Assembly: GCF_003334355.1 (NCBI RefSeq)
Contig: NZ_QOWP01000019.1
DNA length: 64,000 nucleotides
DNA from: Escherichia coli
GTDB lineage: Bacteria > Pseudomonadota > Gammaproteobacteria > Enterobacterales > Enterobacteriaceae
Strand: one strand, 5' to 3'
Both the position numbers and the translations under genes were made by a program. A model generated the notes under the pieces. It was not told the DNA's origin, did no database searches, and worked only from the letters and a program-made list of their open reading frames with translations. Shown one piece after another: positions 3,011 to 51,154 of the stretch; positions within the stretch are counted from its first letter, which is position 1, and every line of letters starts with the position of its first letter.

Positions 3011-3020
3011 TCTCCCCTCC

Positions 3021-3056
3021 CCCGGTGACGTTTGTTGCCGGGTTTTCTCGTTTTTG
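3021..3056 (+). terminator. Rho-independent terminator after ppnN
   Basis: Short GC stem (cccgg...ccggg) followed by a T-rich run ttttctcgttttt. Confidence 0.5.
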
Positions 3057-44780: not shown

Positions 44781-45470
44781 ATGTCCCAACCTCGCCCACT
44801 GCTCTCTCCTCCCGAAACTGAAGAACAGTTGTTAGCGCAAGCACAGCAACTTTCTGGTTATACATTGGGAGAACTGGCGGCACTTGCCGGGCTGGTTACG
44901 CCAGAGAATTTAAAACGCGATAAGGGCTGGATTGGCGTGTTACTGGAGATCTGGCTAGGTGCCAGCGCAGGGAGTAAACCTGAGCAAGATTTTGCTGCTC
45001 TGGGCGTGGAACTTAAAACTATCCCTGTGGATAGTCTTGGTCGTCCGCTGGAAACAACATTCGTTTGTGTTGCCCCGTTAACGGGCAATAGCGGGGTGAC
45101 CTGGGAAACCAGCCACGTGCGCCACAAACTCAAACGCGTACTGTGGATACCGGTTGAAGGCGAGCGCAGCATCCCGCTGGCGCAGCGTCGCGTTGGATCA
45201 CCGTTGCTGTGGAGCCCGAATGAAGAGGAAGACCGGCAGCTACGCGAAGACTGGGAAGAATTAATGGATATGATTGTTCTCGGTCAGGTTGAGCGGATTA
45301 CCGCTCGTCACGGGGAGTATTTACAGATACGACCGAAAGCAGCGAATGCGAAAGCGCTTACCGAAGCCATTGGTGCCCGGGGCGAACGGATTCTGACGCT
45401 GCCGCGCGGCTTTTATTTGAAGAAAAATTTCACCAGTGCGCTGCTGGCCCGTCATTTTCTGATCCAGTAG
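44781..45470 (+). CDS. mutH: Methyl-directed mismatch repair endonuclease MutH
   Basis: 229-aa ORF recognised as MutH. Confidence 0.96.
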
Positions 45471-45538
45471 CCATCGCTTTGACCTGCCGCTTTCCGGGCA
45501 TATAATTACCGCTTCATTTTTTTGGCAGGGCTTTTTAG

Positions 45539-46252
45539 ATGTTATTTGCATGGATAACCGATCCTAACGCCTGGCTTGCGCTCGGTACGCTGACGCTGCT
45601 GGAGATCGTTCTTGGGATCGACAATATTATTTTCCTTTCTCTGGTGGTGGCAAAGCTTCCCACAGCACAACGTGCTCATGCGCGCCGTCTGGGGTTGGCG
45701 GGAGCCATGGTTATGCGTCTGGCGCTGCTGGCATCAATCGCCTGGGTTACGCGCCTGACAAATCCGCTTTTTACAATATTCAGTCAGGAAATTTCTGCCC
45801 GTGACTTGATTCTGCTTCTGGGTGGCTTGTTCCTTATCTGGAAAGCCAGCAAGGAAATCCACGAATCCATTGAAGGTGAAGAAGAAGGGCTGAAAACACG
45901 CGTTTCATCATTCCTCGGCGCTATCGTGCAGATTATGCTGCTGGATATTATCTTCAGCCTCGACTCGGTGATTACCGCTGTGGGTCTGTCAGATCACCTG
46001 TTTATTATGATGGCAGCCGTGGTGATTGCCGTAGGCGTGATGATGTTCGCCGCGCGCTCGATTGGTGATTTTGTCGAACGCCATCCTTCGGTAAAAATGC
46101 TGGCGCTCTCTTTCCTGATTCTGGTGGGCTTTACCCTGATTCTGGAAAGTTTCGACATCCACGTACCGAAAGGTTACATCTACTTCGCGATGTTCTTCTC
46201 TATTGCGGTTGAAAGCCTCAACCTGATTCGCAACAAAAAGAACCCGCTCTGA
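45539..46252 (+). CDS. ygdQ: TerC-family inner-membrane protein YgdQ
   Basis: 237-aa polytopic membrane ORF recognised as YgdQ. Confidence 0.88.
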
Positions 46253-46389
46253 TACTCCGTACGCTCTCCTGCGGGAGGGCGTACTCACTCCTGTTACCCT
46301 CACAGTTTAAGATTTTCCTGCTTTCAAGATATATAACGTCAGTTTATAAACAGACTATTATCATAGGTGGGCCAAATGAGGATAACCGG

Positions 46390-46608
46390 ATGAAAAAATG
46401 GGCAGTAATAATTTCTGCAGTCGGACTGGCGTTTGCTGTTTCCGGGTGTTCCAGTGATTACGTCATGGCGACCAAAGATGGCCGTATGATTTTGACCGAT
46501 GGAAAACCTGAAATTGATGATGATACCGGGCTGGTGAGTTATCACGATCAGCAAGGTAACGCGATGCAAATTAACCGTGATGATGTTTCGCAAATTATTG
46601 AACGTTAA
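46390..46608 (+). CDS. ygdR: DUF903 small lipoprotein YgdR
   Basis: 72-aa ORF with signal peptide and lipobox (VSGC); clear paralog of YgdI at 18256-18483. Confidence 0.88.
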
Positions 46609-46715
46609 CAAATAAGGTCAGCATCCGGCTGGCCTTAAGATTTTTCTCTTTCCCTTTTCCCTTCCCTCTGCCATTTTTATATTCCTTATGTCGTGATTAT
46701 AAAAAGGAAACGGCT

Positions 46716-47756
46716 ATGCAATATCACCGTATACCCCACAGTTCGCTGGAAGTCAGCACGCTGGGGCTTGGCACGATGACGTTTGGTGAACAGAACAGCG
46801 AAGCCGACGCCCACGCACAACTCGACTATGCCGTCGCTCAGGGCATTAACCTTATCGACGTTGCCGAAATGTACCCAGTACCTCCGCGCCCCGAAACGCA
46901 AGGGTTAACCGAAACCTACGTCGGCAACTGGCTGGCGAAACATGGCAGCCGCGAAAAGTTAATTATCGCCTCCAAAGTGAGCGGACCGTCGCGCAATAAT
47001 GACAAGGGCATCCGCCCGGATCAGGCGCTGGATCGGAAGAATATCCGCGAAGCGTTGCATGACAGCCTCAAGCGTCTGCAGACTGATTACCTCGATCTTT
47101 ATCAGGTGCACTGGCCGCAGCGCCCAACCAACTGCTTCGGCAAACTCGGTTATAGCTGGACAGATTCTGCGCCTGCGGTTTCGCTGCTGGATACGCTGGA
47201 CGCACTGGCAGAGTACCAACGAGCGGGAAAAATTCGTTATATCGGCGTGTCGAACGAAACTGCATTTGGCGTAATGCGCTACCTGCATCTGGCGGACAAA
47301 CACGATCTGCCGCGCATTGTCACCATTCAGAACCCTTACAGTCTGTTAAACCGCAGTTTTGAAGTAGGTCTGGCAGAAGTCAGCCAGTATGAAGGGATCG
47401 AACTGCTGGCCTATTCGTGCCTGGGTTTCGGCACGCTGACCGGGAAATATCTCAACGGTGCAAAACCCGCTGGCGCACGTAATACGCTCTTTAGTCGGTT
47501 CACCCGCTATAGCGGTGAGCAAACGCAAAAAGCCGTCGCGGCGTATGTTGATATCGCCAGACGTCATGGACTGGATCCTGCTCAGATGGCGCTCGCTTTT
47601 GTACGTCGTCAACCGTTTGTTGCCAGCACTCTGCTGGGCGCAACCACGATGGAGCAGCTGAAAACTAACGTCGAAAGTTTGCATCTGGAGTTGAGCGAAG
47701 ACGTATTAGCTGAAATTGAAGCGGTGCATCAGGTTTATACGTATCCTGCACCATAA
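46716..47756 (+). CDS. tas: NADP(H)-dependent aldo-keto reductase Tas
   Basis: 346-aa ORF recognised as Tas. Confidence 0.94.
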   Translation: MQYHRIPHSSLEVSTLGLGTMTFGEQNSEADAHAQLDYAVAQGINLIDVAEMYPVPPRPETQGLTETYVGNWLAKHGSREKLIIASKVSGPSRNNDKGIRPDQALDRKNIREALHDSLKRLQTDYLDLYQVHWPQRPTNCFGKLGYSWTDSAPAVSLLDTLDALAEYQRAGKIRYIGVSNETAFGVMRYLHLADKHDLPRIVTIQNPYSLLNRSFEVGLAEVSQYEGIELLAYSCLGFGTLTGKYLNGAKPAGARNTLFSRFTRYSGEQTQKAVAAYVDIARRHGLDPAQMALAFVRRQPFVASTLLGATTMEQLKTNVESLHLELSEDVLAEIEAVHQVYTYPAP

Positions 47757-47760
47757 GATT

Positions 47761-47782
47761 AACGCCGGTTAAAACCGGCGTT
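47761..47782. terminator. Palindrome between convergent tas and lplT, probably a bidirectional terminator
   Basis: aacgccggtt-aa-aaccggcgtt perfect inverted repeat. Confidence 0.6.
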
Positions 47783-47787
47783 AAATA

Positions 47788-51154
<3,367 letters not shown>

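Follow-up and report, generated by a model that had tools for sequence, protein, structure and literature searches.

The window analysed here is a 64,000-nucleotide stretch of Escherichia coli DNA (contig NZ_QOWP01000019.1 of assembly GCF_003334355.1), in which a window position plus 2,924,881 gives the coordinate in MG1655 (NC_000913.3). The segment under study is the intergenic region between ygdR and tas (46609-46715), whose sequence is identical in MG1655. The genes of this neighbourhood on the plus strand are as follows.

44781-45470, plus strand: mutH (open reading frame list)
45539-46252, plus strand: ygdQ (open reading frame list)
46390-46608, plus strand: ygdR coding sequence, a DUF903 lipoprotein, the gene upstream of the tract described below (open reading frame list; RefSeq annotation of matching E. 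coli genomes and of MG1655)
46716-47756, plus strand: tas coding sequence, an NADP(H)-dependent aldo-keto reductase (open reading frame list and RefSeq annotation)

The same list of reading frames places lplT in this neighbourhood on the minus strand. A 501-bp query over the site finds matches, annotated with ygdR and tas, in 5,424 of 5,426 complete E. coli genomes. The gene name tas used in the original prediction is therefore correct, the tract lying between ygdR and tas of E. coli by both the reading frames and RefSeq.

Within the intergenic region the plus strand carries an uninterrupted pyrimidine run flanked and overlapped by elements of transcription and translation, which in order along the DNA are the following.

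46613-46637, plus strand: hairpin of the ygdR intrinsic terminator (terminator scan and RNA fold)
46635-46645, plus strand: T-tract of the terminator, TTAAGATTTTT; the ygdR 3' end (46640) falls inside it, and its TTTTT (46641-46645) opens the pyrimidine run
46641-46669, plus strand: pure pyrimidine run of 29 nt, spanning about -44 to -16 when counted from the reported tas start
46648-46654, plus strand: CTTYCCC block (CTTTCCC in E. coli), with C46648, T46649, T46650 and C46652 invariant in 20 sequences
46655-46660, plus strand: TTTTCC, the best -35 candidate, matching TTGACA at 3/6 positions and lying 17 bp upstream of TATATT
46667-46688, plus strand: TCTGCCATTTTTATATTCCTTA, the most conserved intergenic block, which holds both -10 candidates (cross-genus alignment)
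46685, plus strand: reported transcription start site of tas as a monocistronic unit (SMRT-Cappable-seq), 16 bases past the run
46704-46709, plus strand: AAGGAA, the tas Shine-Dalgarno sequence, present as AAGGAA in all genera

The run reads TTTTTCTCTTTCCCTTTTCCCTTCCCTCT and consists of 17 T and 12 C without a single purine, while over a wider 38 nt (46641-46678) 36 of the 38 positions are pyrimidines, the sole interruptions being G46670 and A46673. The original prediction had described an almost pure C/T run of about 35 nt, and the string that it quoted is indeed present; the coordinates attached to it, 46609-46715, span the whole intergenic region, inside which the tract proper is confined to 46641-46669. 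Its description as unusual for E. coli is upheld by the length of the run, which is real and lies far beyond chance. Apart from it, no stretch of purines alone or of pyrimidines alone in the 64-kb window exceeds 15 nt, and in 300 dinucleotide-preserving shuffles of the window the longest run averages 15.2 nt (sd 1.7, maximum 22). Under independent bases, runs of at least 29 nt are expected at 1.4e-4 per window, or about 0.01 per 4.6-Mb genome, and another 400 kb of MG1655, sampled as eight 50-kb pieces, contain runs of up to 17 nt. Among the next longest runs of the window is TCTCCCCTCCCCC (3011-3023), a 13-nt C-rich pyrimidine run that might be part of a BoxC-type repeat.

At the 5' end of the tract the parts of a Rho-independent terminator, hairpin, T-run and adjoining mapped 3' end, are found together. 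The terminator stem pairs 46613-46622 with 46628-46637 (10 bp) around a 5-nt loop, ATCCG, and includes a conserved core stem GGTCAGC/GCTGGCC (46616-22 and 46628-34). Comparison of 19 distinct sequences, drawn from Escherichia, Citrobacter, Kluyvera, Enterobacter, Pluralibacter, Cedecea and further genera, shows pairing of the stem to be possible in 98-100% of cells, the loop being free to vary. Most other genera carry TTTTTGATTTTTT after the stem at the same place; E. coli has a decayed first T-run (TTAAGA) there, followed by a clean second one just past the mapped 3' end, which itself lies 3 nt past the extended stem and 6 nt past the conserved core stem. The element resembles known Rho-independent terminators in its GC-containing hairpin, downstream T-run and mapped mRNA 3' end, and departs from a plain one in the degenerate proximal T-run of E. 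coli and in contributing no more than the first five bases to the tract.

Mapped transcript ends on either side place the tract between two transcription units. In Term-seq data (Adams et al. 2021 eLife, supplementary file 1) the primary 3' end of ygdR appears in two conditions and stands at MG1655 2971521, which converts to window position 46640, one base 5' of the run, with flanking sequence that agrees. SMRT-Cappable-seq reports a monocistronic tas unit (b2834) starting at 2971566 on the forward strand (Yan et al. 2018 Nat Commun, supplementary file 4), in coordinates that we calibrated on neighbouring promoters, such as that of ygdQ, where the start falls 6 nt past TTGACC-16-TATAAT. The units listed here in the operon table of Yan et al. 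2018 are ygdQ, ygdQ-ygdR and tas, and a ygdR-tas co-transcript is absent from that table. In those supplementary files of Adams et al. 2021 that were searched, tas does not appear among the 5'-UTR and ORF-internal 3' ends, and Mendoza-Vargas 2009 lists a 5' RACE primer for tas without a result. With the mapped ygdR 3' end at 46640 and the reported tas start at 46685, the tract lies outside both main transcripts. The original prediction had asked whether it falls in the tas 5' UTR; it does not, the run ending 16 bases before the mapped start.

The same datasets bear on the neighbouring transcripts. The ygdQ mRNA has a 3' end at MG1655 2971170 (window 46289), past the hairpin CGTACGCTCTCCTGCGGGAGGGCGTAC (46259-46289) and 101 nt before ygdR, in a row of Adams et al. 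2021 with a 'Yes' flag that seems to denote Rho dependence. A further plus-strand Term-seq 3' end at MG1655 2972707 (window 47826), antisense to lplT, is probably the end of the tas mRNA, so that the convergent tas and lplT transcripts would overlap.

The 3' part of the tract and the bases that follow it have a promoter-like layout. The most conserved block follows the cross-genus pattern CTCTGCCAT(G/T)TTTATA(T/G)TCCTT, in which GCCAT-TT is invariant across genera, and its part 46670-46688 reaches 88-90% identity across genera, the highest among the intergenic blocks. Two hexamers in the block are candidates for the -10 element, TATATT (46678-46683) and CATTTT (46672-46677). TATATT matches TATAAT at 5/6 positions and has the A at position 2 and the T at position 6 expected of a sigma-70 -10 element; Enterobacterales in general, as well as several Vibrionaceae, keep a TATATT, TATAGT or TATAAT at about the same distance before tas. 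The -35 candidates TTTTCC (17 bp) and TTTCCC (16 bp) each match the consensus at 3/6 positions; the TTTCCC at 46649-54 would be the -35 if CATTTT is the -10, and otherwise lies directly upstream of the -35. The position homologous to TTTTCC reads TTTTGC, TTTTTC or TTTCTC in other genera, and in Yersinia, Rahnella, Serratia and one Pantoea TTCCCC stands exactly 17 bp upstream of TATAGT. TTTTCC-17-TATATT ranks first in the intergenic region when sigma-70 likeness is scored with approximate matrix values; its total of 8/12 matches falls below the scan threshold of 9/12, which is why a simple promoter scan called none here.

The reported start, which comes from one dataset, lies 2 nt past TATATT and 8 nt past CATTTT. 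With TATATT as the -10 element transcription would be predicted to begin at 46688-46690, so that the reported site is 3-5 nt nearer than expected; being too near TATATT, it implies either that the call is shifted by a few bases or that the poorer -10, CATTTT, is used. An indel-tolerant alignment may have anchored the poly-C stretch, which the protocol adds at the 5' end of the sense read, on the genomic CC 46684-5, the true start then being A46688 or G46690; alternatively E. coli may use CATTTT, in which the key A and T are present, together with TTTCCC (46649-54) 17 bp upstream, a choice to which the invariance of GCCAT-TT lends some weight. Whichever -10 is chosen, the tract contains the -35 and spacer and precedes the start.

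Occupancy and expression data are consistent with promoter activity in this region. ChIP-chip regions for RNA polymerase, sigma-70 and sigma-S cover ygdR and the DNA upstream of tas (Cho et al. 2014), although at a width of several hundred bp they could reflect the ygdR promoter instead of the tas promoter. Both tas and ygdR are up after a rapid acid shift, along with many general stress genes (PMC2270276). The arrangement thus resembles a sigma-70/sigma-S promoter with a weak -35: a TATAAT-like -10 with a hexamer beginning T-T 17 bp upstream, a reported start site a few bases downstream and ChIP signal for RNA polymerase, sigma-70 and sigma-S over the region, with a Shine-Dalgarno sequence and the ATG following after some 30 nt. 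It differs from the usual sigma-70 promoter in that the -35 and spacer are C/T-only on the non-template strand and in that the reported start is too near the -10.

The tas leader downstream of the tract has several features of its own. A minimal open reading frame, ATG TCG TGA (46688-46696), is kept in Escherichia and Citrobacter and has no evident ribosome-binding site. An inverted repeat, CCATTTTTATA (46671-46681) and TATAAAAAGG (46698-46707), brackets the tas start and overlaps the Shine-Dalgarno sequence; it is confined to Escherichia and Citrobacter, and in the predicted fold it would mask the ribosome-binding site only in RNA begun upstream of 46671, that is, in ygdR read-through. The remaining Enterobacteriaceae conserve a leader RNA stem-loop, GUCRGGA...UCCUGAC, that begins 5-6 nt past the -10 and has 8 pairs with frequent G-U wobbles and two compensatory pairs (L007:1454-1486 among the homologous loci, with counterparts in L006, L008-L010, L012, L013, L015, L016 and L037; alignment A2). 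It may be a 5'-terminal stabilising hairpin, and in E. coli and Citrobacter it has been lost by deletion.

Comparison between strains and genera shows what in the tract is held constant. A 130-bp query over the intergenic region gives at least 99% identity in 5,372 of 5,424 E. coli genomes. In other genera the 29 tract columns are 77-80% identical to E. coli, a figure inflated by the two-letter composition, for which random expectation is about 50% rather than 25%; four-fold degenerate sites of tas in the same genomes are 41-54% identical. The cross-genus alignment contains no length change within the core tract (46648-46669). Pyrimidines make up 0.79-0.97 of the homologous columns in each genus examined. 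An unbroken run is found only in E. coli, at least one G or A interrupting it in E. albertii, in a divergent Escherichia and in Citrobacter, Enterobacter, Kluyvera and others. As purity is unbroken only in E. coli and the blocks are conserved in every genus examined, selection would act on the sequence blocks and not on purity. The tract thus proves conserved: about 5,400 E. coli genomes carry it almost unchanged, and it stays rich in pyrimidines throughout the Enterobacteriaceae. The original prediction was to fall if the tract was both unconserved and outside any transcript; the first is contradicted by these comparisons, and the second is borne out for the main transcripts.

Rare strains carry insertion sequences in the ygdR-tas intergenic region, namely E. 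coli AF57 (L082:2830-4260) and 2017.17.03CC (L083:2078-2897). An IS4 lies within the ygdR terminator and leaves the tract intact save for one T-to-G change; an IS1 lies just 3' of the end of the window match (about 46672), apparently between the tract and the -10.

Taken together, the tract is probably ordinary control DNA in which the T-tail of the ygdR terminator abuts the upstream half of the tas promoter. The first five T's (46641-46645) would be the distal T-tract of the ygdR Rho-independent terminator, and the other 24 bases would comprise the CTTYCCC block, a weak -35 (TTTTCC or TTTCCC) and most of the 17-bp spacer before the -10. RNA polymerase with sigma-70, and probably also with sigma-S, would bind here, the tas mRNA beginning about 16-21 bases past the tract, so that the tract would work as double-stranded DNA and be present in neither main transcript. 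Its C/T purity would be a by-product of conserved T- and C-rich elements placed side by side, the one or two purines that break the run elsewhere happening to be pyrimidines in E. coli. The run itself with its rarity, the two mapped transcript ends and the conservation are observations; the choice of hexamers for -35 and -10, the sigma factor and selection for promoter function are inferred from them. The earlier suggestion of a binding platform would then hold in the ordinary sense of a promoter, the -35 and spacer plausibly being touched by RNA polymerase and possibly by a regulator.

The alternative that survives best is that a transcription factor binds the direct repeats TTCCC or CTTYCCC (GGGAA in the complementary strand) and acts over the tas -35 and spacer, either activating (class II) or repressing. 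We regard this as rather unlikely, although it overlaps the promoter explanation and does not exclude it. The CTTYCCC and CTCTGCC blocks are conserved well past the needs of a -35 hexamer with 3/6 matches, and the bases upstream of the -35 are more conserved than a core promoter by itself would demand; because a weak -35 leaves the conservation of these blocks unexplained, a regulator site may be superimposed on the promoter. Repetition of the motif is consistent with this, TCCC(T) occurring three times in E. coli and CTTCCCC twice, at a distance of some 12 bp, in other genera, as is the retention of TTCCCC at the -35 by distant Enterobacterales, and the rise of tas and ygdR after the acid shift suggests regulated expression (PMC2270276). 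Against it, the number and spacing of the repeats vary between genera, and the literature searched yields tas in expression lists only, with no regulator named. Comparison by eye with consensus sites gives partial or E. coli-only matches for BaeR, RcsAB, CsgD, MarA/SoxS, IscR type 2, sigma-24, sigma-28 and sigma-54.

Far less probable is a role of the tract as RNA, carried by ygdR read-through or by a longer tas leader as a CU-rich element, whether it backs the terminator as a rut site, pairs as an anti-Shine-Dalgarno sequence or is bound by Hfq or ribosomal protein S1. The tract is C-rich and free of G, like rut sites, its CCCUUUU-type strings are partly complementary to the ribosome-binding region AAAAAGGAAA, and the degenerate proximal U-tract of the E. 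coli terminator (UUAAGA) makes some read-through conceivable. However, the ygdR 3' end falls one base before the tract and the tas start 16 bases after it, and no ygdR-tas unit is listed. Rho loading usually needs roughly 70-80 nt, and the G-free stretch, which lies between the mapped ygdR 3' end and the tas start, is 29 nt. In the predicted fold of 46600-46745 the tract is unpaired and the Shine-Dalgarno region pairs instead with CCAUUUUUAUA (46671-81). An anti-Shine-Dalgarno pairing was rejected separately, covariation of CTTTCCC/CTTCCCC with GGAAA/GGAAG (judged by eye) being inconsistent across genera. An Rfam search of 45500-47800 gives no match overlapping 46609-46715 even at an E-value of 10; elsewhere in the searched segment a twister-P3 match at 47753-47788 (E = 0.097) scores 23.4 bits, short of the gathering score of 39.9, and is probably due to chance.

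The original prediction had also proposed an effect on local DNA structure. In such a reading the tract would adopt a non-B form, either an H-DNA triplex or an i-motif/G-quadruplex pair, at negative supercoiling or low pH and thereby tune the tas promoter, which we consider very improbable. A perfect purine-pyrimidine tract of 29 bp is very rare in this genome, it lies within the proposed promoter, tas mRNA rises after the acid shift (PMC2270276), and as an uninterrupted homopurine-homopyrimidine stretch it is long enough for H-DNA, whose mirror repeats it resembles in these respects. Arms of at least 10 nt are usual in the definition of H-DNA motifs. The best perfect mirror repeat here, TTCCCTT/TTCCCTT, has arms of 7 nt, and arms of 10 nt match at 8/10 positions. 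The C-rich strand contains three CCC runs (46652-54, 46659-61 and 46664-66) and a CC, where a G-quadruplex or i-motif requires four C3/G3 runs. In other genera, moreover, the tract is broken by G or A and the C-runs become two of CCCC, and the blocks are still conserved; as purity and C-run pattern vary under conserved blocks, selection would not be on strand purity or the number of C-runs. With a symmetry of 7+7 nt, three C3 runs and purity confined to E. coli, the structural claim finds no footing. A narrower version makes the tract a physical sensor in the acid-responsive tas promoter, a switch specific to E. coli and superimposed on an older, conventional promoter, in which acidification of the cytoplasm or altered supercoiling would flip the tract to a protonated triplex or i-motif-like state and alter RNA polymerase binding; it too appears highly improbable. 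If true, a structural switch of this kind would be a rare bacterial example, and the tests made here argue against it.

Two classes of repeat were considered and rejected. The tract shares with the BoxC, PIT and TMECO repeats of E. coli a C/T- and G/A-rich composition and an intergenic position, those repeats having been discussed as triplex formers (PMC4666352). They are dispersed (23 copies in MG1655), showed neither promoter nor terminator activity and lie in surroundings that are unstable from strain to strain (Holder et al. 2015; PMC4666352), whereas the tas tract is one locus per genome with surroundings almost invariant among strains. A phase-variable repeat is likewise at odds with the identity of at least 99% over 130 bp in 5,372 of the 5,424 E. 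coli genomes and with a core tract free of gaps across genera.

Finally, there is very little to recommend a heat-shock (sigma-32) promoter with the tract as its upstream half. In its favour, GCCATTTT and the C-richness of the non-template strand resemble by eye the consensus TCTC-CCCTTGAA ... CCCCATNT, TGCCATTT (46669-76) stops 8-9 nt short of the reported start at 46685, as a sigma-32 -10 should, and the invariance of GCCAT-TT can be counted for it as well, but the candidate -35 lacks the GAA of TTGAAA, alignment of CCCTT to the consensus leaves a spacing of 9 nt instead of 13-17, and the sigma-32 region in the ChIP-chip data of Cho et al. 2014 lies a few kb away and not here.

The kind of element proposed for the ygdR-tas junction, a terminator tail running into a promoter, is well known; neither a promoter with a pure C/T upstream half nor the conserved TTCCCC motif was found described in the literature searched. 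Placing the tas promoter and the ygdR terminator precisely has little importance beyond annotation, but it illustrates that an eye-catching low-complexity tract can come from ordinary regulatory elements packed together. The deeply conserved TTCCCC, 17 bp from TATAGT, upstream of tas orthologues is a possible lead to the regulator of this poorly understood aldo-keto reductase.
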